From positions 192,001-256,000 of IMG/VR virus record IMGVR_UViG_3300023283_000076: a stretch of DNA of 64,000 nt. One strand, written 5' to 3'. The notes beneath the pieces were generated by a model. That model searched no databases. It was not told the DNA's origin and was given only the letters and a program-made list of their open reading frames with translations. This stretch comes from a virus. Taxonomy: Duplodnaviria; Caudoviricetes. This document shows, piece after piece, positions 3,001 to 28,885 of this stretch. A program made the translations under genes and the position numbers. The first letter of the stretch is position 1; the number at the start of each line of letters is the position of its first letter.

Positions 3001-3748
3001 TAAAAGAATCGTTTTCAGTTATATTTTGAGGATTCATTATAAGAAGTGCAGTATCTACGTAGTTCATTTGACCATCGTTATGCATTGGATGGTATCTTTT
3101 GATATCAGAAGATACATCAATGATACTATCAGCAAATCCGGTTCCACTTCTAGCTCTCGCAGATGAAGAATAGGATTGACCATCAACAGGCCAATTAAAT
3201 TCTTTTTTTGTATTATACGGATTATCACTTTCTTCACGTATGTCTCTATTTGAGGTAAACAGCAATTTATCTACTACCACATGGGCATTGGTTATTCCTA
3301 CGACTTTATCATCTATATCATCTACTGCAAAAAACCCTAATGTTCCAACACTAAATCCGGATGGATCTCCTGATGTATTAGTTTCCCAACCAAGTGGGAA
3401 TTTTATTATTTCTTGACCACCTTTCAATGGTGTTATAAGTGAAGGATTGCCTTGCAATTTAAGTATATCTGGATCGTTGGAGTTAGAGAAACATGCCATG
3501 AATTTTATTTCATTTATTTCTTTAACATCAGTTTTAAATTTCGTTCCATCTATTTCTATTTCTTCAGGTACTATTTCTGAGGGGGATAATTGATCTAACG
3601 ATTTCTTTTCTGGGACACTCACTCTTATACATATCTCTGACGTTTCCTTCCCATCCTTTTCTTTTCTAGCAATTGATATTGATCTACAGTTATAACTGTT
3701 TTCTTTAAATAATTTCTCAATTTCATGTTTTATGTTATTAATATCCAT
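2..3748 (-). CDS. Multidomain virion appendage protein, partial (runs off the left edge): prodomain + trypsin-like (S1/Nal1-like) serine protease + IPT/TIG + LamG-like + Pro/Thr linker + LamG-like + IPT/TIG + LamG-like
   Basis: Not in the ORF track because no stop falls inside the window. ATG at 3748 with GGGAG upstream. I translated the frame by hand and found it open to position 2 (1249 codons). Triad motifs: TNAHV (His codon 3281-3283), VDTAL (Asp 3053-3055), GDSGS (Ser 2711-2713). Confidence 0.88.
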   Translation of the reverse strand, partial: MDINNIKHEIEKLFKENSYNCRSISIARKEKDGKETSEICIRVSVPEKKSLDQLSPSEIVPEEIEIDGTKFKTDVKEINEIKFMACFSNSNDPDILKLQGNPSLITPLKGGQEIIKFPLGWETNTSGDPSGFSVGTLGFFAVDDIDDKVVGITNAHVVVDKLLFTSNRDIREESDNPYNTKKEFNWPVDGQSYSSSARARSGTGFADSIIDVSSDIKRYHPMHNDGQMNYVDTALLIMNPQNITENDSFKIHHPSGVTESTAFLPFATTTEIDSLLDTPKPKMFSVGRTTGPKGWGTDPACTIEAVGLGVNINVGFDNGNLSIPFGDIIHYQHSDGSAGIIDGGDSGSALIAEFGGVKKIVGLAFAGSGDTINAFACRIDRIAQALKIRQWDNTFTYDDTVPTSNIISFPIEDPSSDQLSIIQNGKEYFQIGSDINVTSPQSGMLSISSINPTTGDEAGGTDVTITGENFDTGTAATVTFGGIDATNIVVVSDTEITCTTPAGTGTVDVVLTQGGESETLAGAFEFTAASSVWTPASIPAANLPIWLDRDDASTVTDAGGGEFNWLDKSGNNHDFVSNGAPTTVNINGRAFWQFDNNQEFLGPDINPEDGTNDEYEAFIVMRADAVGAAAEYEGIIAFGEHSSGFWLARYIRDTRQLLQAFNNSTRADSSVFNSFPNSGKPLFVSQLRKIVGTSVRIYDAATEISNVTTSGAVAEMTTGGQVRLGRLTGLSTGDYLNGAMGEVLILKNAPAEREKVEGYLHHRHGLESQLPADHPYKNSPPSISESVTPTPTPTPTPSVSDSTTPTPTPTPSVSESATPTPTPSISESVTPTPTPSPTQTSMQSSDSLVDVMLADSPIQLWNFDQAGSTVTESVSGVSTLDRGSNVGTAGALDGFAIDSVDLTNNNAGLADTYSTTSATNADQPKKGDDATFAFLARRDTGGNLSNHWGIRTVSNNQGTEVSLESDGSILVKVFNGSWEQYSSSTGLTADATTHLVHVTFTDSTDAVEVFVDGVSVATGTLSGGLGRLSSRGEIAIGAVRDSSITKESDASVQLVAFYRKVLSAAQIQAQSEARMLSISSINPTTGDEAGGTSVTITGENFDTGNSATVTFGGVSATNITVVSKTEITCTTPAGTGTVDVAVTQGSESDTLAAAFVYEDLWTPADITTSLWLDASENDTITTDVNGDAQQLDDISGNGRHMTFNTNPAIATDSKSQHLVFAGGTQRGDLPTLGISGSDNRTLMMVVDPG
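279..526 (-). repeat. IPT/TIG domain copy A
   Basis: Encodes [26 protein letters not shown]...[15 protein letters not shown]. Bases 498-526 are identical to 2391-2419. Confidence 0.85.
1235..1410 (-). repeat. Short Pro/Thr/Ser linker array (about 4 units of ~36 bp)
   Basis: Encodes [11 protein letters not shown]-type units with the same DNA unit as 3803-4390. Confidence 0.85.
2171..2419 (-). repeat. IPT/TIG domain copy B
   Basis: Encodes [29 protein letters not shown]...[15 protein letters not shown]. Confidence 0.85.
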
Positions 3749-3751
3749 AAA

Positions 3752-6700
3752 TTAATTCTCCCATGTTATAAAGATAGTAGAAACGTCATTCAGATTTGAT
3801 GGCGTTGGCGTAGGTGTAGGCGTGGGAGTAGCACTCTCAGATATCGATGGTGTGGGTGTTGGAGTAACACTCTCAGATACTGACGGTGTAGGTGTTGGAG
3901 TAGCACTCTCAGATATCGATGGTGTTGGTGTAGGTGTGGCACTCTCAGATACCGACGGTGTAGGTGTTGGAGTAGCACTCTCAGATATTGATGGTGTTGG
4001 TGTGGGTGTTACACTTTCAGATACTGACGGTGTTGGCGTAGGTGTTACACTATCAGATATTGATGGTGTTGGTGTAGGTGTGGCACTCTCAGATACCGAC
4101 GGTGTAGGTGTTGGAGTAACACTCTCAGATACTGACGGTGTAGGTGTAGGTGTAGGTGTAGGTGTAGTACTATCAGATACCGATGGTGTAGGTGTTGGAG
4201 TTGCACTATCAGATGTCGATGGCGTAGGTATAGGTGTTGCACTTTCAGATATTGATGGTGTGGGTGTTGGAGTGACGCTCTCAGAAACTGACGGTGTGGG
4301 TGTAGGTGTTACACTATCAGATATTGTTGGTGTAGGAGTAGGTGTAGCACTTTCAGAAACTGACGGTGTAGGTGTAACACTCTCAGATGTTGTAAATTCA
4401 AATGCCCCCACCAGCGTATCCGCTATACCGTTCTGTGTGACCACAACGTCAACTATTCCGGTACCAGCCGGGGTCGTGCAGGTGATTTCGGTATCACTGA
4501 CTATCGTGATGTTAGTCGCAAGTACATTATCAAACCTGACTGTCGCGCTTCTGCCGGTGTCGAAATTCTCGCCCGTGATCGTAACGTCGGTTCCCCCAGC
4601 TTCATCCCCTGAAGTCGGGCTGATGCTACTTAGAGATATCACACTTGGTGTCGGTGTCGGAGTAAATCCGCTACCCTGACTAGGTGTCGGTGTCGGAGTA
4701 AATCCGCTGCTCTGAGTAGGGCTCGGCGTGGGAGTAACGCTTATAGATACTGACGGTGTAGGTGTGGGAGTAACACTTATAGATATTGACGGAGTAGGTG
4801 TGGGTGTGACACTTGTAGATACTGATGGCGTAGGCGTGGGTGTGACAGAAACCGATGGTGTTGGAGAGGGTAATATTTCACCACAGTCAATTTCTGAAGG
4901 AAACACCTGTATTATATCCTCCAGTGTTGGCGTATTTAATTCTACCCTGTTAGATACATCTACAGATACCCATGAAGTTTTAAATATATCAGGATGTTTT
5001 TGATTTAACGATACTGAACGCTCCAGTAATTCAAAGAAAATATCGTTAACTTCAACAGCAGAAAATATTTCATATATCGATTTATAAAAATCTCTTATAC
5101 CTTCTATTCTATCTAAATCAAAACTATCAATGAATTCTTCTATGTCAACTCGCTCCCACTGTCTTGAAGGATCCAGTAGTACTTCCATAGTTAATTTCAT
5201 TATCTCAGGCTTGTCCATAAGAACTCTGCCATTATATAACCCTATTCTTGATGTTGCTCCTTCTATTAAAGTATCAAATCGTATTCTGCTTTCGCTTGGA
5301 AGTGACGATTCTGTATCAAGATCAAAATCATTATTGATCACAGTTTTTTCAGTTGCAGCTTCTATAACCTTCTTCCACAATAATAAATCTATTTTTCCAG
5401 ATTGTTTTCTTCTAGTTAATTTCCATGACCAATGCTTATTACTTAATTTTAAGTCCTTTTTGTTTAATCGATCACGTAAGGTATAATCTTTAGTAAGGCG
5501 TAATATGTAATTATTATCGTCTTTAACGGTTCGATTTAATCCCTTTATAGTACATGCAGAGAATCGTGTTGGCAGGGTATTATCTTCTGGATCATATGTG
5601 CTACCGAATAAAACACCGTAACCCGTTCCTTCATTTCTAAAGCCATGTATTATGGCAAAAGGTTCTGACATTGATTTATATGCTCGTTCAGCATCAAATA
5701 AAGTTAGAGAAGTATTTTGCAGCAATTTTTCTGAGCGCATATCGGACACCCAATAAAAATAAATATATTCTTCCTCTAATGAGTTAGTATTGAATGACTT
5801 AACTTTGGTATGTGGATAAATTATTACATACTCTTCATTTTCCAGTTCTTCTTGTGTTGGTTCGTGTGGTTCCCGCACAAGAGTTAACATATCTTTTTGT
5901 TGTATGTCCCCAGATGTTATATCATTGTCTATCATTACTTCTAAGGCAGATGCATTATCATATTCTATAGATCGTAGAAATTCTCCGTTAACATATACGT
6001 TTAAAGAATCACCGGAGGAAAACATAGAAGTATCGTTTGTATTGTCATATCCTGCCACAGGAAATTTTGATACTGTTATCGTCTCTTCCTGCCATATTGG
6101 TTCTTCTGTAGTTCCAATATTTTTATATACTATTCTACGAGGATTTCCGGTAACTTTCTCTGACAGTTCTATTCGTCTATTTTCATCCTCTTCCGCTTGT
6201 TCAATGTATTCAGTTGGGGAGAGCGTTGTCTGGATCCATTTATAAAGTTTAACATCACCAAATTCTTCTAATTGTCCCCACACTAAACTTCTTTCGTCTT
6301 CTGTTAAAAAGATATCTTCATCAAAATATGGTTTATAAAATTGTCTGGACGTATCTAACCAAATAGTTCCTGTTTCTTTACTGTGCCAGTAATTTTTTTT
6401 CACCCTACTTTCATTTAAATCATTAGTGTATTTCGCCGGGTCATCGGGTCTATCTATATCAATAGGAAACTCACCAAGTGGATTATGTTGATCCAATGCG
6501 GGGTTCCATATAGGAATTTCTTTTAGCACCTTTTCTGGTTTTTTAGTTTCGATTAATCTAAGTGGGTTTTCTTCTTCATATGCATAGGTTAATGTTACGA
6601 CTTTAATATTTTCCCAATCATCAAAATCTTCATCTATAAATTCTAAAATTCTAGAGTTTATGAATCTAAAGGATATTCCTTCGGATGCATTTTTTTCTGT

Positions 6701-13966: not shown

Positions 13967-13974
13967 TATTTATA
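13967..13974 (-). promoter_or_regulatory. T4-type late promoter TATAAATA
   Basis: Exact T4 late consensus 25 nt upstream of the 3396-aa gene. A gp55-like sigma is encoded in the window. Confidence 0.75.
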
Positions 13975-23223: not shown

Positions 23224-24222
23224 ATGCAAGAAAACAATAAACAACCTAATCCTCTTATAGAAAAGAGTAGGGCAGCTATTCCGGGTGTTGTATTTCGTCT
23301 TCCCTCACGAGGGAAAATATATGATGAGGGTGTATTAGACGAAGGTGTAGAAGAAGGCGAGGTGCTAGTATATCCAATGCGCCTAAAAGAGGAACTCAAA
23401 ATGAAATCAGTGGATTCTATCTTACAAGGAACTGCTGTTTCTGATTCTATTAAATATTGTGTTCCTGAAGTGTTAGATCCTTTGAAATTGTGCCCGGAAG
23501 ATGTTGATTATTTAATAACAACAATTAAAAAAATGACTCATGGTAGTACGTTTAAATTTAAAGATACTTGCATGAAATTAGAAGACCATACAAATATTCC
23601 TACACCAGATAATGCATTATCTGAAATGAGTGAAGAAAATAGAACAAGTAATATTGAACTCCCCGAAGATGTCTCTCAAGATGACTCTGAGGGTTCTGAA
23701 AACAAAGCTGACACGCAAGATGCAATTAAAAAAGAAAATATAAACAATCTTGGAGAAAATAGTAGCGTATGTGAATTTAACGTGTCTTTGGATTTTTTTC
23801 TTAATAATGCAAAAGAACTTAATATTGATGAATATAAAGAAAAAAATGCATTAACATTGAATGGATTTAATATAGAATTTCATCCCATCACATTTGAAGC
23901 GTTTAAAGAATTAAATACGTTAAATCTTAAAGACCAAACTAAAATGGATGATGAAGAATATTTTAATTTTATAAATGAATTTAGTAATGTTAATATAGCT
24001 AGAAGAATTAAAAAAGTTGATGATATATCAGATCCAAATATTATATCTGAATGGGTAGAAACGTTATCTTTAAGTGATAGAGAAAAAATATTTAATAAGG
24101 TAGCTGAACTGCAAGACTGGGGTATAGACTTTTCGTATAATATTAAATGTAATACATGCGGGAAAACTAAAAAAACGGATCAATCATATATAAATCCGTT
24201 GTATTTTTTTTTAATATACTAA
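23224..24222 (+). CDS. gp26: Baseplate hub assembly chaperone, gp26-like
   Basis: FRLPSRGKIY...GEVLVYPM..KEEL and C-terminal WG....YNIKCNTC motifs. Confidence 0.75.
   Translation: MQENNKQPNPLIEKSRAAIPGVVFRLPSRGKIYDEGVLDEGVEEGEVLVYPMRLKEELKMKSVDSILQGTAVSDSIKYCVPEVLDPLKLCPEDVDYLITTIKKMTHGSTFKFKDTCMKLEDHTNIPTPDNALSEMSEENRTSNIELPEDVSQDDSEGSENKADTQDAIKKENINNLGENSSVCEFNVSLDFFLNNAKELNIDEYKEKNALTLNGFNIEFHPITFEAFKELNTLNLKDQTKMDDEEYFNFINEFSNVNIARRIKKVDDISDPNIISEWVETLSLSDREKIFNKVAELQDWGIDFSYNIKCNTCGKTKKTDQSYINPLYFFLIY
24204..24213 (+). promoter_or_regulatory. Candidate programmed -1 ribosomal frameshift site T TTT TTA
   Basis: T9 run. Zero-frame codons TTT(24208) TTA(24211) are preceded by T. The -1 frame is open into the 24255 ORF. 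Confidence 0.6.
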
Positions 24223-24254: not shown

Positions 24255-24461
24255 ATGAAAGCCCTGCAAAAGGGTAGCAGAAATCTTATACAATCTGCTA
24301 TACATATATCATATTTCATGCGTGGAGGCATTCAGTATGAAGATGTACTTGAAAGAACTTTCTTTGAAAGAAGCGAAATGATAGATTACATAAATGATAG
24401 GATAAAACGTGAATCAGAAAAATGCAGGGAGAGTAAAGGAAAGCTCCCGCCAATATACTAA
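24255..24461 (+). CDS. Baseplate hub assembly catalyst, gp51-like; possibly the C-terminus of a frameshift fusion
   Basis: ISYFMRGGIQYEDVLE....ER..MIDYI pattern, directly after gp26-like. Confidence 0.6.
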   Translation: MKALQKGSRNLIQSAIHISYFMRGGIQYEDVLERTFFERSEMIDYINDRIKRESEKCRESKGKLPPIY

Positions 24462-25158
24462 TATAATTTCTATAGACCCATCCACCAGTTGTACTGGATT
24501 ATGTATAAATGGAAAGTTATATACTATTGTTCAACACGAACTCGCATATACTAAAAAAGATAAAGCAAAACGATGGTTCGAACTTTCTTCTTCGTTCTGT
24601 GATATAATAACATATAATAAAAGATCTAAAACCGGTTCTTATTCAGAAGAAGAAATATCAAAACTTGAGTATTATTATAATATAACCGATCATATAATTA
24701 ATGTAATAAAATCTAACGTTGTTGATTTTAAAAATTCAGTTGTTTTAATAGAAGGATTTAGCTATGGTTCGTCTTCTGGTCATTTAATAGATTTAGTTGG
24801 TCTTTCTACTCTAGTCAGATCAAGATTATGGAATATGGGTTTTAATATAAAAATTATAGCACCCGCAGACTTAAAAGCAATGACTGCAAGATTAAGTTAC
24901 GACCCTATAGATGTTGGCAAAAAGAAACCTAAATTAGAGTGGAGAAACAATAGTGGTGTGTCTGGTGGATCCTTTGATAAACATGATATGTATTCAGCAA
25001 TATTAGACAGTAGTAAAACAAACTCAAAATGGAAAACATTTTTACAAGAATATTCAGATGAAATATTGAACATGAAAAATGTTCCAAAACCTATAGATGA
25101 TATTAATGATGCGTTTTTATTATATAAAATATTTAAAGAGAGTTTAACCCCCCGATAA
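24409..25158 (+). CDS. RuvC-like (RNase H fold) nuclease, putative Holliday junction resolvase
   Basis: ISIDPSTSCTG (Asp), VLIEGFSYG (Glu), APADLK, and KPIDDINDA (Asp pair). Confidence 0.75.
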   Translation: MNQKNAGRVKESSRQYTNIISIDPSTSCTGLCINGKLYTIVQHELAYTKKDKAKRWFELSSSFCDIITYNKRSKTGSYSEEEISKLEYYYNITDHIINVIKSNVVDFKNSVVLIEGFSYGSSSGHLIDLVGLSTLVRSRLWNMGFNIKIIAPADLKAMTARLSYDPIDVGKKKPKLEWRNNSGVSGGSFDKHDMYSAILDSSKTNSKWKTFLQEYSDEILNMKNVPKPIDDINDAFLLYKIFKESLTPR

Positions 25159-25188: not shown

Positions 25189-26532
25189 ATGAAAATACAA
25201 AATGTAATACATATTGTCGAAAATGTTTTATTTGAAATATCTAGACATGGTAGTGAATCCGCAACTCATATGTCTGACGAAGATTATCAAGAAGTTCGTC
25301 AATTTTTAAATGTTTTAGTTAATATAATTAAAACAGAAAGTGACAATAAAGACATGTCATTGAAAGAGTTGAACTCTAGCCTTCAACTTATTAGGAACAA
25401 TAGTGCCAAACAATATATATTCGGAAAATCTAAATCAATTAAAAGATCTTCCACCCAGTCATCATATCGAAAAGATGATGAAGAACGGATATCTTCATTT
25501 GCTGGCCCAGAAGAGAAAGAATTTTCAGTGTCTTCCCAGAGAGCGGAAGACACTGTACATGTAGCTAAAGCATTGGATAAAATGGGTTATGTTAAACTGG
25601 ATTTTGCTTCTGAAACCTTTAATATCATAGACACACCAGCACTTGCTAGAATAAGAAACATGGTTCAAGTTGGGTTCGACCGTGCAAAACTTTCTACTGT
25701 ATCTCAAGCATTGGAAAGATTTGATGATCTTAGACATCTATATGCGGGCTATGCAAAAAATAGATTACAACCAGATGAGGATACTATACATGGTCAATCA
25801 CAGATTAAAGAGTTGACACCTAACATCATGGCATTTTTAGCTCAAGTTAGTAGAAAAAGAAAGGGTGGTGAAAAATGGCATGAACATCTAGATCCGAGTA
25901 ATTATGAAAATAGATATTTCCGTGGCAATACAGAAGGATACTTTACTTATGATCCTCATGAAGCTGCTGATGAGTTACAGCGTTTAGGGTTAGCTAAACA
26001 AACAAAATCTGGAACATATACATTAGATAAGGATAGTATAGAAAAATCTGTAAGAGAATTCAAGAGAATCGCAGAAACATTATTATCTGGTGCATTATTA
26101 GTCAATCCAATTAGTAAAACCGGAGCCCCAAACGAAAAAGAGCAAAAAGTTAGACAAACCATTAATTTTGTAAAACAACATTTTTCAGACAAAATTTGGA
26201 ATAATGCGAAAAAAAGTGTATATCGTAAAATGGAAGATGTCGGGGGATCTGTAAAACAGGCACTAGACTTTTATATTAGTTCTAAAGAACAAACAGGACT
26301 AAACGCTGATAGTAGAGTTTCAAAACAATTGAATGATGTAGATAAAACTATTGTGGGCACCGTTATAGATTTTGCGACGGCAAAATTGGTATTGCGTAAA
26401 ATGTTGTTTGATGCACGTTATGTATTGGGTAATCCTAAGAAAAATGTTCCTAATTTCATTTCCACCAAGGATGTTTCTCTTGCCGGTAGAGTCATTGATA
26501 AGGGAATACATACTCGAAAAGCTAGAGTTTAA
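25189..26532 (+). CDS. Hypothetical late protein, candidate internal head protein
   Basis: 447 aa with a late promoter. The N-terminus MKIQNVIHIVENVLFE contains I/L-x-E sites. Confidence 0.55.
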   Translation: MKIQNVIHIVENVLFEISRHGSESATHMSDEDYQEVRQFLNVLVNIIKTESDNKDMSLKELNSSLQLIRNNSAKQYIFGKSKSIKRSSTQSSYRKDDEERISSFAGPEEKEFSVSSQRAEDTVHVAKALDKMGYVKLDFASETFNIIDTPALARIRNMVQVGFDRAKLSTVSQALERFDDLRHLYAGYAKNRLQPDEDTIHGQSQIKELTPNIMAFLAQVSRKRKGGEKWHEHLDPSNYENRYFRGNTEGYFTYDPHEAADELQRLGLAKQTKSGTYTLDKDSIEKSVREFKRIAETLLSGALLVNPISKTGAPNEKEQKVRQTINFVKQHFSDKIWNNAKKSVYRKMEDVGGSVKQALDFYISSKEQTGLNADSRVSKQLNDVDKTIVGTVIDFATAKLVLRKMLFDARYVLGNPKKNVPNFISTKDVSLAGRVIDKGIHTRKARV

Positions 26533-26546
26533 ATGTTAAACAAATC

Positions 26547-26577
26547 TTGACACACATCTTTTAAGGGTGTATAAATA
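26547..26577 (+). promoter_or_regulatory. Composite promoter: sigma70 TTGACA-17-TATAAA whose -10 is also the late consensus TATAAATA
   Basis: TTGACA 26547-26552, 17-nt spacer, TATAAATA 26570-26577. No ORF of 60 aa or more follows for ~640 nt. Confidence 0.8.
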
Positions 26578-26579
26578 AC

Positions 26580-26960
26580 ACACTGTTCGTTGATATACAT
26601 GATTTCAACGCTACAATTAAACATTTTAAAATCCTGAACAGGCTGCACAATAGCACTTATACAGTGTTCGTCGGACAAGGGTGATATTAAATGATGAAAA
26701 ATAATATCAGTTTACTCCCCTTAAAGGTCTGGATGAGAGAATAGTATATTGAAAAGGTTTTAGCAGGGTTCAAACTAATAATATATTATATTCTTGACTC
26801 ATCGAAACCCCTCTCAATATTCATCATGTTGAGAGAGGTCCTGAATCTTTTTTAAGATTGTGAGGATCGACAGTCATTATTCATGTAATGATGATATCTT
26901 TAAATGATGGTATAAAGATTTTGATGTCACACCATCTAGGTTGGAGAGGGCAATTTCCTA
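26580..26960 (+). ncRNA. Candidate large structured non-coding RNA, family not recognised
   Basis: Strong promoter upstream, no ORF, and at least 7 stems found by eye (listed in findings). Confidence 0.45.
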
Positions 26961-27005
26961 ATTTAAATTTTAAATAAAAAATGGGGGAGGGAGAGTCTTT
27001 AAAAC

Positions 27006-27030
27006 TCTTAGAAGTTGAATCTTAGAAGTT
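27006..27030. repeat. 11-bp direct repeat TCTTAGAAGTT x2
   Basis: Copies at 27006-27016 and 27020-27030. Confidence 0.8.
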
Positions 27031-27050
27031 AAAGATAAAATTGTCAAAAA

Positions 27051-27168
27051 AGACAATAAAAATGCGAGCGTTAGCGAGTATTTTTATTGTCTCTTCCGAT
27101 GAAAAGAAATATAAATTTTTCAAAAACTGGCGTTTTTGCAGGGAGTTCTTTTTTCAAGAACTCCCTGC
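27051..27168. repeat. Cluster of three inverted repeats/hairpins
   Basis: 13-bp stem 27051-27063/27080-27092, 7-bp stem 27121-27127/27132-27138, and 13-bp stem 27138-27150/27156-27168. Confidence 0.9.
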
Positions 27169-27171
27169 CTC

Positions 27172-27200
27172 TTGATTATTTGTGGTACCTGTGGTAGAAT
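27172..27200 (+). promoter_or_regulatory. Sigma70-type promoter TTGATT-17-TAGAAT with extended -10
   Basis: Upstream of the helicase. It implies the true start is ATG 27224 (SD GGAG at 27214), not GTG 27182. Confidence 0.7.
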
Positions 27201-27223
27201 GTGTTTTAAAAATGGAGACCATA

Positions 27224-28885
27224 ATGCCCTTACTGACAGAAGCTCAACTTTTAGAAAAGAAAGAACAAGAGCTTATAGACCAATTAGATAAAAGAACAAT
27301 GAATAAAAGTTGGGGAACAATATTACCAAAATTTACTCCTAGAAGCTCTCAGACACATGTGATGGAATGGATTAATGAATTGCCAGCACATGTTAAATAT
27401 GTAATGTGTGAGATGCCTGTGGGATCAGGCAAATCTCCTCTAGCAATGGCGTTCAGTGGTTATATCAATAATGGAATGGGTAATGCCTTCATAATGACAC
27501 CACAAAAGACATTACAACGCCAGTACGAAGAATCATTTGAAAAAGAAATATTAGCTTCAGTATACGGGCGTTCGAATTATAAATGCGAAGCGAAAAATAC
27601 AACATGTGATGTAGGGTCAGATATTAAACCTAAATGTGAAGAATGCCCAGCAGATTGCGCTAGAGAGGTAGCATTGAGTTCTCCTAATATGGTATTGAAT
27701 TATAGTATTGCATTGACGTATTTTAAATATCTTAAACATAAAATACCTGCACGAGATGTTATGGTATTTGATGAATGTCATGTATTAGAATCACATTTGG
27801 TAGAATTCAGTTCATTGAATATCAGCAAGAATATATGTAAAAAATATTCAGTAAAATTTAAAAAACCGAAAAACTCTGATGATGCCATTCAATTTCTAGA
27901 AAAGGTATATCATCCTGCAGTATGTGAAAAAATTAGTGAATATAGAAAGCATATAACGCAGTTAGACAATTCTTTTAGTAATAAGCTATCCAAGGCTGAC
28001 ATTAAAGTAATAAAAGCTTACAAAGCTGCTACAGAGCATAGAGACACCATTCAAGAGGTATTGTCTACAGATAGAAAATACTTTGATAAAAAGTATGTAT
28101 TAATTGTTGATAATGATTATTTTAAATTTAAAGAATTATTCGGTAAAAACAATTTTAGAAACTTATGTTTACCTAAAGCAAATCGTTTTCTATTCATGTC
28201 ATCTACAATATTGGATAAAGAAGGCTTCTGTAATGATTTGGGTATCAATTCAGATGAAGCTGCAATGATTTCAGTTGATTCAGAATTTAATGTACAAAAT
28301 CGAGAAGTAATATATAAACCAATAACAAAAATGAACTATGGTTGGCATACCCCAGAACGCTCAAATGAACGTAAAAAAATGATTAAAACCATAAATCATA
28401 TATGCAATTACCATAACAACGAATCTGGTATAATTCATAGTGGAAGTTTTAAAGTTGCAGAATGGATATTACATAATATAAACTGTCCACATGAAATCAT
28501 TGACCACAACCCAAGTGGAGAAAGAACTAGAGATGATGCCATCGAATATTTTTTGGAAAATTCACAATTACGACCGATGATATTGGTATCACCTTCTGTG
28601 ACTGAGGGCATGGATTTAAAGGACGACCGTGCTAGATTTGGGATTATCACAAAAGTGCCATATCCATTTTTGGGTGATGCATGGGTTAAAAGACGTATGC
28701 AATTATCTAAAGATTGGTATAATCGTCAGGCCATTACGGGAATCATCCAAGGCTGCGGACGTGTTGTACGTTCTAAAGAGGATTGGGGACAAATTTATAT
28801 ACTTGACGAATCTTTTTCTTATTTGTATAAGCAAACATTAAAAATGATTCCCCAATGGTGGAAAGACGGACTAATTGTACTCTAA
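27224..28885 (+). CDS. DinG/YoaA-like SF2 helicase (Fe-S type)
   Basis: EMPVGSGKS Walker A, MTPQKTLQ, Cys cluster CE..N.TC....KC..C...C, FDECH, MSSTI, SPSVTEGMD....RFGII.KVPYP, QGCGRVVR...DWG..YILD. Confidence 0.9.
   Translation: MPLLTEAQLLEKKEQELIDQLDKRTMNKSWGTILPKFTPRSSQTHVMEWINELPAHVKYVMCEMPVGSGKSPLAMAFSGYINNGMGNAFIMTPQKTLQRQYEESFEKEILASVYGRSNYKCEAKNTTCDVGSDIKPKCEECPADCAREVALSSPNMVLNYSIALTYFKYLKHKIPARDVMVFDECHVLESHLVEFSSLNISKNICKKYSVKFKKPKNSDDAIQFLEKVYHPAVCEKISEYRKHITQLDNSFSNKLSKADIKVIKAYKAATEHRDTIQEVLSTDRKYFDKKYVLIVDNDYFKFKELFGKNNFRNLCLPKANRFLFMSSTILDKEGFCNDLGINSDEAAMISVDSEFNVQNREVIYKPITKMNYGWHTPERSNERKKMIKTINHICNYHNNESGIIHSGSFKVAEWILHNINCPHEIIDHNPSGERTRDDAIEYFLENSQLRPMILVSPSVTEGMDLKDDRARFGIITKVPYPFLGDAWVKRRMQLSKDWYNRQAITGIIQGCGRVVRSKEDWGQIYILDESFSYLYKQTLKMIPQWWKDGLIVL

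Follow-up and report, generated by a model that had tools for sequence, protein, structure and literature searches.

Large structured RNAs that combine pseudoknots with conserved junctions are rare, and most of the known classes are ribozymes or ribonucleoprotein cores. For GOLLD and ROOL, the ‘ornate’ RNAs of phages and prophages, we know of no function. Transcripts from which replication is primed offer another point of comparison, i.e. the origins of phage T4 sit near switches in transcription direction (PMC3016281), and the G-rich transcript tract of the type found at mitochondrial CSB II gives a persistent hybrid or a hybrid G-quadruplex that leads to the replication primer (PMC3488243, PMC4176368). 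Here, we analyse a gap of 649 nt without any open reading frame (ORF), located at positions 26533-27181 of a 64,000-nt stretch of phage DNA (hereafter the window; positions 192,001 to 256,000 of IMG/VR record IMGVR_UViG_3300023283_000076) and directly 5' of a superfamily 2 (SF2) helicase gene. Judged by its sequence, this gap appears to constitute a gene of its own that encodes a large structured non-coding RNA, i.e. one predicted transcription unit of ~0.6 kb that is made up of a core, a variable linker, a hairpin and a terminator. The RNA would have a core of ~415 nt and reach ~600 nt with its tail, both its transcription and its two ends being predicted.

A preliminary description of this DNA had proposed an undescribed large phage RNA that fits neither tRNA, tmRNA, RNase P nor group I or II introns. 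Both statements hold, considering that 15 phages share the structure, with covarying pairs, and that the RNA has no match in Rfam. Specifically, the whole 64-kb window gave no match to Rfam 15 at gathering thresholds, with GOLLD, ROOL, tmRNA, RNase P, group I and II introns, HEARO, OLE, raiA and small ribozymes among the families covered. When searched at E values up to 10, the RNA region gave only chance-level microRNA and snoRNA matches, and the RNA of 10 relatives gave no match at E values up to 1. ARAGORN finds neither tRNA nor tmRNA in the window and no tmRNA in the whole genome, and a tmRNA identity was therefore rejected.

Homologues were sought in helicase-anchored loci taken from viral contigs and metagenomes, with an nhmmer profile then run over every fetched locus. 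This gave 14 further members (L124, L125, L126, L128, L130-L134, L139-L141, L252 and L077), i.e. 15 with the window. The RNA lies directly 5' of the same helicase and on the same strand in all 15, and the helicases of these members are 43-90 % identical to that of the window. Even the most divergent members clearly retain several blocks, i.e. AAUUCUGAAC-GGCUGC, GUCGGA, AAAGGUC, UAAAAC, GAGUUUGG, CAAUUUCC and AAAAAUGGGGGAGGG, such conserved blocks being shared by phages with helicases only 43-50 % identical. A covariance model of one arm of the RNA (model R1, arm Pb in the list below) recovers 14 of the 15 members with E values of 1e-9 to 1e-13. Short-motif scans of viral contigs returned mostly chance matches, of which nhmmer retained only true members; a metagenome scan with the helicase alignment yielded only six loci, three of them carrying the RNA, and megablast and blastn searches of the gap against 50,697 phage records found no match. 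All 15 members come from uncultured phages, and the nearest cultured relative by helicase, phage XacN1, is without the RNA.

Along the unit, the following features were recognized (+, plus strand):

26547-26577 (+): promoter, with -35 TTGACA (26547-52), a 17-nt spacer and -10 TATAAA within a T4-type late box TATAAATA (26570-77)
26588-26610 (+): leader hairpin CGUUGA/UCAACG; by inspection, most relatives have a hairpin of different sequence here
26616-26650 (+): single-stranded and conserved block ACAAUU..AAUYCUGAAC, followed by CAGGCU (26639-44), which is the 5' strand of helix Pa, and by a conserved GCAC
26654-26666 (+): hairpin 1, CACU/AGUG, variable in length and missing in L125 and L126 (by inspection)
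26670-26722 (+): conserved junction GUCGGACAAG, then hairpin 2 with outer stem AAGGG/CCCUU (26677-81/26718-22) and inner stem UGAUAUUA/UAAUAUCA (26682-89/26702-09)
26726-26731 (+): 3' strand of helix Pa, GGUCUG, with a conserved UUAAAG just before it
26732-26803 (+): arm Pb, with Pb1 GAUGAG/CUCAUC (26732-37/26798-803), then Pb2 and the stems AGUAUAUU/AAUAUAUU (middle) and GGUUU/AAACU (apical)
26804-26838 (+): junction GAAAC, which reads UAAAAC in most relatives, followed by hairpin Pc, CCUCUCAA/UUGAGAGAGG
26838-26867 (+): hairpin Pd, outer stem GUCCU/AGGAU, inner stem AAUCUU/AAGAUU
26868-26891 (+): junction CGACAGUC (in relatives GACAGCCGA) and hairpin Pe, UCAUUA/UAAUGA
26896-26936 (+): H-type pseudoknot, with helix Hx AUCUUUA/UAAAGAU (26896-902/26913-19) and helix Hy, in which GAUGGU in the Hx loop (26906-11) pairs with ACCAUC (26931-36)
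26937-26995 (+): 3' domain, in which a conserved UAGGUUGGAG precedes a small GUUG/CAAU hairpin (loop ..GGG); then come the pyrimidine block UUUCCUA (26954-60), an AU hairpin (26961-66/26970-75) and an A6 run
26982-95 (+): near-invariant purine tract UGGGGGAGGGAGAG
27006-27030 (+): two direct repeats UCUUAGAAGUU in the variable linker (27006-16 and 27020-30)
27050-27093 (+): 15-bp hairpin tipped by GAGCGUUAGCGA
27138-27178 (+): GC hairpin and U-rich tail resembling an intrinsic terminator, where the unit probably ends
27172-27226 (+): the helicase’s own promoter TTGATT-17-TAGAAT with upstream TG, and a GGAG ribosome site, outside the RNA

Whole-RNA and pseudoknot-region alignments made with MAFFT were misregistered, and pairs were therefore counted only on short anchor-flanked alignments (A5, A8 and A9). 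Alignment A5, which covers Pb1 and Pb2, is plain MAFFT output not fitted to the structure; the strands of Pa and Pb1 were taken by an anchor script and those of Hx and Hy parsed by hand. For Pb1 and Pb2 together, 96.8 % of the cells are paired, versus 72.3 % in shuffled alignments and 29-47 % in slid controls, and all nine pairs show double changes. Helix Pa (A8, 14 sequences) is 100 % paired, versus 87.3 % after shuffling and at most 60 % in slid controls, with double changes in three of its six pairs (CG/AU/UA, AU/GC and CG/UA) and a covariation score of 0.40 versus 0.14 in shuffles. Likewise, Hy (A9) is 100 % paired (shuffled, 80.7 %; slid controls, at most 53 %), and four of its five pairs show double changes. 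None of 500 shuffles matched the observed percentage paired or the covariation score of Pb1 and Pb2, Pa or Hy. In strand tables of all members, 70 of 70 cells of Hx and 71 of 71 cells of Hy are canonical, with 11 versions of each helix. In addition, two G-U pairs in Pa are invariant, and this helix therefore exists only on the plus strand, as RNA. For Pc, Pd, hairpin 2 and the leader hairpin, the whole sequence is replaced between lineages while complementarity is kept; these observations were read by eye and are structure-fitted, and are therefore weaker evidence.

Two checks proposed in the preliminary description thus turned out in favour of a structured RNA, i.e. covariation among homologues, found in Pb1/Pb2, Pa, Hx and Hy, and a folding energy better than that of dinucleotide shuffles, although the value for the window (z = -2.54) is moderate, not dramatic. 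Over the 15 cores, the minimum free energy gives a mean z of -2.4, with 10 of the 15 below -2. No ORF in the RNA is conserved among the 15 homologues, the longest open frame varying from 40 to 103 aa; the minus strand of the region holds an ORF of 49 aa.

Nearly all the stems that had been proposed earlier are found at the positions given for them, and most are kept in the relatives with compensatory changes, i.e. CGTTGA/TCAACG, AAGGG/CCCTT enclosing TGATATTA/TAATATCA (with covariation in the outer stem), the long bulged arm 26732-50/26780-803 (whose two basal helices are the Pb1 and Pb2 of the nine doubly changed pairs), the 26807-39 hairpin, AATCTT/AAGATT and TCATTA/TAATGA. The pairing of GATGGT with ACCATC is also conserved, not as the simple stem that had been described but as the second helix of the pseudoknot. 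Three pairings, ACACTGT/ACAGTGT, CCCTCTC/GAGAGGG and CTCCCC/GGGGAG, are not conserved in the relatives and are probably not real. The long-range helix Pa (26639-44/26726-31) is a new pairing, absent from the earlier description, which encloses hairpin 1, the GUCGGACAAG junction and hairpin 2. By inspection, the outer stem of hairpin 2 reads GAGC/GCUC in L124, AAGAU/AUCUU in L130 and L134, AAGUG/CACUU in L128 and AACCA/UGGUU in L141, and the stem of Pc has a wholly different sequence in each lineage and is always complementary. Many relatives share the apical loop UUCGGAAUUA of arm Pb. A pairing of CUGAAC with GUUUGG was also tried, the blocks being either invariant or mismatched.

In the 3' domain, the AT tract that separates UUUCCUA from UGGGGG folds as a hairpin in all members, from unrelated sequences. 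The pyrimidine block UUUCCUA may pair with the first half of the G tract, and in L139 the U before the G run is changed to C and its partner A to G; as the pairing energies are modest, this UUUCCUA/UGGGGGA helix is kept as tentative. The purine tract resembles retroviral polypurine tracts. At a distance of 50-120 nt 3' of the G tract, 14 of the 15 members have a long AU-rich hairpin with the loop consensus GARCG-N-AGYGA, the tip of which can be interpreted as tandem G.A/A.G pairs, one or two Watson-Crick pairs and a tri- or tetraloop; the inner pair of the tip alternates between G-C and A-U among members. The G tract, the hairpin-loop motif and the direct repeats are each found at this one place in the genome. 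Repeats that follow the G tract reach significance in only four members, i.e. the window, L124, L125 and L131, with L132 as a borderline case; iterons were therefore rejected as a family trait (4-5 of 15 members).

Further copies or look-alikes of the hairpin were seen in two places. The L140 locus has two or three G.A-tipped copies (1640-1800, loop GAGCGUAGCGA) between core and helicase. In phage PA5oct (L299:4453-4506; MK797984, ~76.95 kb), a 16-bp AU-rich hairpin with a loop starting GAG and ending CGA stands at the end of a hub-adjacent non-coding stretch and has the same design as that at 27050-27093 of the window.

The promoter reported for the locus, TTGACA-17-TATAAATA, is present where it had been placed, and it is the sole such combination in the 270-kb genome. 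Transcription is predicted to start from it near 26582-85 (about 26583). A promoter of the form TTGAC(A/T)-N16-18-TAnnnT is found at the same place in 11 of the 15 homologues. As to the claim that the promoter is active both early and late, its first half is consistent with the sigma-70-type -35 and -10 elements of most members, from which early expression of the RNA can reasonably be predicted. The second half has to be narrowed, since the T4-type late box over the -10 is exact in only 5 of the 15 members (TATAAAT in 7), and late expression is possible in the window’s subgroup only. Genome-wide, TATAAATA is not enriched, with 57 copies found versus 72 expected. Such boxes also lie 25-40 nt 5' of structural genes on the coding strand, at window positions 13974, 17354, 40606, 43548, 49611 and 63397, a placement that matches the expectation for T4-type late promoters.

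Regarding the other end, the preliminary description had the RNA stop at 26960, after ~380 nt. An RNA is indeed predicted there, but it would continue through the G tract (~26995) and probably to the terminator. A GC-rich hairpin before the helicase promoter was also seen in those relatives inspected. The mechanical ORF start of the helicase, GTG 27182, overlaps the helicase promoter; based on the alignment with L124 and other relatives and on the GGAG site, its start is most likely ATG 27224.

The source record is a 270.6-kb IMG/VR genome of an uncultured jumbo myophage, estimated to be 79 % complete, with 34 % G+C and 48 tRNA genes found by ARAGORN in the whole genome. Upstream of the RNA gap lie three genes:

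23224-24222: gp26-like baseplate-hub gene
24409-25158: resolvase-like gene, 249 aa, PHROG 159
25189-26532: 447-aa ORF without a Pfam or PHROG assignment, flanked by the resolvase-like gene and the RNA

The resolvase-like gene lies upstream in most members, with no match in the fetched stretch of L140 and L141, and a gene is inserted between it and the RNA in some. Of the members, only the window, L124 and L125 have the 447-aa ORF, those of the latter two being 56 % and 28 % identical to it; elsewhere the resolvase-like gene abuts the RNA. The 249-aa protein was also considered as a gp51, which was rejected as there is no similarity. On the 3' side, the gap is followed by the SF2 helicase (27224-28885), two small ORFs and then SbcCD-like genes on the opposite strand. 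The helicase carries ResIII and Helicase_C_2 domains, matches FANCJ in the PDB and is of the XPD/DinG/FANCJ type; an assignment as UvsW orthologue was rejected on comparison. Its closest cultured relatives are those of the Xanthomonas phages XacN1 and Xoo-sp13 (47 % identity). The E. coli DinG protein unwinds R-loops. DinG-family helicases also act on G-quadruplexes (PMC10400533).

At 3.4-4.5 kb upstream of the RNA locus, the genome has its global cumulative GC-skew minimum and a switch in transcription direction, the skew minimum lying 4.5 kb away. GC skew here also follows gene orientation, and the skew minimum is therefore not independent evidence for an origin. Outside the window, two tRNA arrays, C1:28900-37800 (-) and C1:64300-74950 (+), mirror each other in order and share most of their tRNAs (Cys, Tyr, Arg, Pro, Tyr, Leu x3, Met, Val and Thr), which suggests a large inverted duplication.

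In the helicase tree, members of the RNA family are spread over the whole clade, and RNA-less lineages are nested inside it, i.e. XacN1 (sister of L133), the group L129/L135/L137/L142, and L143. Therefore, the RNA was lost or replaced on at least three occasions with the helicase retained, which argues against an obligatory RNA-helicase pair. Neither nhmmer nor model R1 finds an RNA homologue in XacN1, L129, L135, L137 or PA5oct.

At the same spot, different ORF-poor stretches of 0.65-1.3 kb were seen in these phages (L129:1850-2500, L137:455-1060, L135:1880-2570, L123, i.e. XacN1, 2233-2916, and L299, i.e. PA5oct, 3300-4680), and their mutual alignment is not clean. Apart from PA5oct, these are relatives with a helicase of equal similarity. 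The stretches of L129, L137 and PA5oct start alike (AAUAAUAAAAAC..., GGUG..GGCA..UUCUUG) and may represent a second RNA family. In L126 (1600-2500) and L127, the helicase gene is split just before GKS (Walker A) by ~1.5 kb of in-frame coding sequence with LAGLIDADG-like motifs, and the RNA is pushed further upstream (547-969); the insert looks like an intein or homing-endonuclease insertion.

Considering these data, we tentatively favour, at a probability of about 0.45, a stable folded RNA that acts in trans as the RNA part or scaffold of a ribonucleoprotein. The host sigma-70 RNA polymerase would start near 26583 and end at the terminator (27138-78), and the core would fold into the leader hairpin, Pa closing a two-hairpin domain, the 80-nt Pb arm, three hairpins, the pseudoknot and a terminal domain, with the variable linker and the long G.A-tipped hairpin 3' of it. 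Protein or nucleic acid would then bind at the conserved unpaired junctions, at the purine tract and at the G.A-tipped hairpin. We infer action in trans and protein binding from a core that combines a pseudoknot and multi-way junctions of invariant unpaired nucleotides with its own promoter and terminator, from the origin-looking DNA features (AT tract and hairpin tip) being RNA structure, and from the loss or replacement of the RNA without loss of the helicase. Some observations weigh against this reading, i.e. the strict confinement to a single genomic site close to genes of replication and recombination and the likeness of the purine tract to primer-forming R-loop tracts both fit a role in cis at least as well, and the transcript ends are predicted from sequence.

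Such a role in cis could be that of an origin transcript, i.e. the structured pre-primer of a transcription-primed origin and a jumbo-phage counterpart of T4 oriF/oriE and ColE1 RNA II, which the preliminary description had offered as its alternative and which we regard as possible, if doubtful. The host polymerase would transcribe the locus, RNase H would trim the primer, the displaced strand and the long hairpin would load the replisome, and the neighbouring DinG/FANCJ-type helicase would later remove the hybrid. In keeping with this, the locus is single-copy, a strong and conserved early-type sigma-70 promoter is directed into it, and the skew minimum and direction switch are near, even though the skew tracks gene orientation too. 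The setting also resembles that of T4 oriF, which lies between hub genes 25/26/51 and uvsY/uvsW with its primer transcribed away from the hub genes, the order here being gp26-like hub gene, resolvase-like gene, RNA and SF2 helicase; however, this helicase is not the UvsW orthologue. The near-invariant A6-U-G5AG3 is like primer-forming G tracts, e.g. that of mitochondrial CSB II (PMC3488243, PMC4176368), and the helicase comes from a G-quadruplex-unwinding family, but the RNA may itself engage the first half of its G tract in pairing. Some lineages have direct repeats of their own, which are significant in only 4-5 of the 15 members, and other jumbo-phage lineages have unrelated non-coding stretches at the same spot. 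This explanation is weakened by an AT tract that is a conserved RNA hairpin rather than a free unwinding element, by the intrinsic terminator that follows, and by the fact that known origin transcripts need no 400-nt pseudoknotted core. It is tempting to speculate further that the RNA serves the phage’s main early replication origin as a device for recognition and priming, giving a ribonucleoprotein origin at the T4 oriF position; we consider this rather unlikely. The pseudoknotted core would set an RNase H-resistant, CSB II-like polypurine tract on the template and so provide the primer for a T4-type replisome; the G.A-tipped hairpin on the displaced strand would load the helicase-primase, and the FANCJ/DinG-type helicase would reset the R-loop or G-quadruplex.

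Since the RNA is always directly 5' of the helicase and on the same strand, with a terminator-like hairpin in between that could act as attenuator, it might also be a cis-regulatory leader, which by sensing a signal or binding a protein would control either the read-through into the helicase gene or its translation. This is improbable, as the helicase has its own extended -10 promoter downstream of the terminator, as 600 nt with a pseudoknotted 415-nt core far exceed known leaders, and as relatives have the orthologous helicase without the RNA. Catalysis is quite improbable as well: the junction nucleotides around Pa, Pb and Pc would have to make up a catalytic centre that serves in self-cleavage, in the processing of RNA or in maturing tRNAs, for which the strictly conserved unpaired nucleotides (GGCUGC, GUCGGA, AAAG-GUC, GAAAC and GAGUUUGG), a size and pseudoknot typical of ribozymes, and the many tRNA genes of the genome could be adduced, whereas no Rfam ribozyme matches even at E values up to 10. 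A hammerhead was rejected, since the hammerhead-like CUGGAUGAG...CGAAAC is limited to the window, L124 and L125, where it is paired as Pb1, and the corresponding positions of other members read UGUAAG, UGCAAG etc., forming Pb1. The order of Pa 5' strand, two hairpins, AAAG and Pa 3' strand recalls the P4/P1-2/P3 topology of a permuted RNase P. This identity was also rejected, as Pa is like P4 in composition but has its strands in the reverse of the order of CR-I (5') and CR-V (3') that form P4, no RNase P model scores, and the other conserved regions, CR-II to CR-IV, were not seen in the RNA. Finally, the moderate folding energy of the window alone and the 49-aa minus-strand ORF would suit chance stems in an AT-rich spacer or small-protein coding, i.e. 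no functional RNA at all. We consider this extremely improbable, given that covariation in four helices exceeds all controls, that no ORF is conserved and that sequence blocks are kept between phages with helicases 43-50 % identical.

The clear architecture, the fixed genomic address and two sharply conserved motifs, i.e. the purine tract and the G.A-tipped hairpin, provide direct experimental handles. If the RNA acts in trans, a well-supported family joins the growing set of unexplained giant-phage RNAs. If it is instead tied to replication, tRNA-rich jumbo myophages would thereby have their first defined origin element, and T4-type R-loop origins would be linked to RNA structure; as the device of the main early origin, the RNA would be part of a ribonucleoprotein origin without a described phage counterpart.

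Among known loci, the stretch of PA5oct (MK797984, ~75.8-77.2 kb; L299) is alike in having a sigma-70-like promoter and ~1.3 kb with only tiny annotated ORFs, in adjoining hub and recombination genes and in its 16-bp AU-rich hairpin with a GA...GA loop. It differs in showing no similarity to the core by nhmmer or model R1 and in having no helicase downstream. In the PA5oct transcriptome, this locus is not among the four non-coding RNAs (PMC7318152). ColE1 RNA II and the mitochondrial LSP/CSB II transcript are likewise long transcripts with a G-rich tract, which here is G5AG3 after an A run, but there is no homology, and the RNA described here has only two G tracts, part of which is perhaps paired internally. 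As at T4 oriF and oriE, a host-polymerase promoter points into a non-coding stretch by hub and SF2 helicase genes, near a direction switch (PMC3016281). T4 oriE has iterons, whereas direct repeats occur here in some members only, and no folded structure is known for the short T4 origin RNAs, in contrast to a 415-nt pseudoknotted core with a terminator, in which the AT tract is an RNA hairpin.

With more than 300 nt, no ORF, covarying helices, a pseudoknot and its own predicted promoter, the RNA has the features of large orphan structured phage RNAs, and we propose that it is a new family of this known kind, not in Rfam. GOLLD and ROOL are alike in these respects, being phage-borne RNAs of several hundred nucleotides with many helices and pseudoknots, their own promoter and no ORF. 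The RNA described here has no sequence or structure match to either by cmscan and, unlike them, is not beside tRNA genes but at a fixed site before a helicase gene, and it carries the purine tract and the G.A-tipped hairpin.

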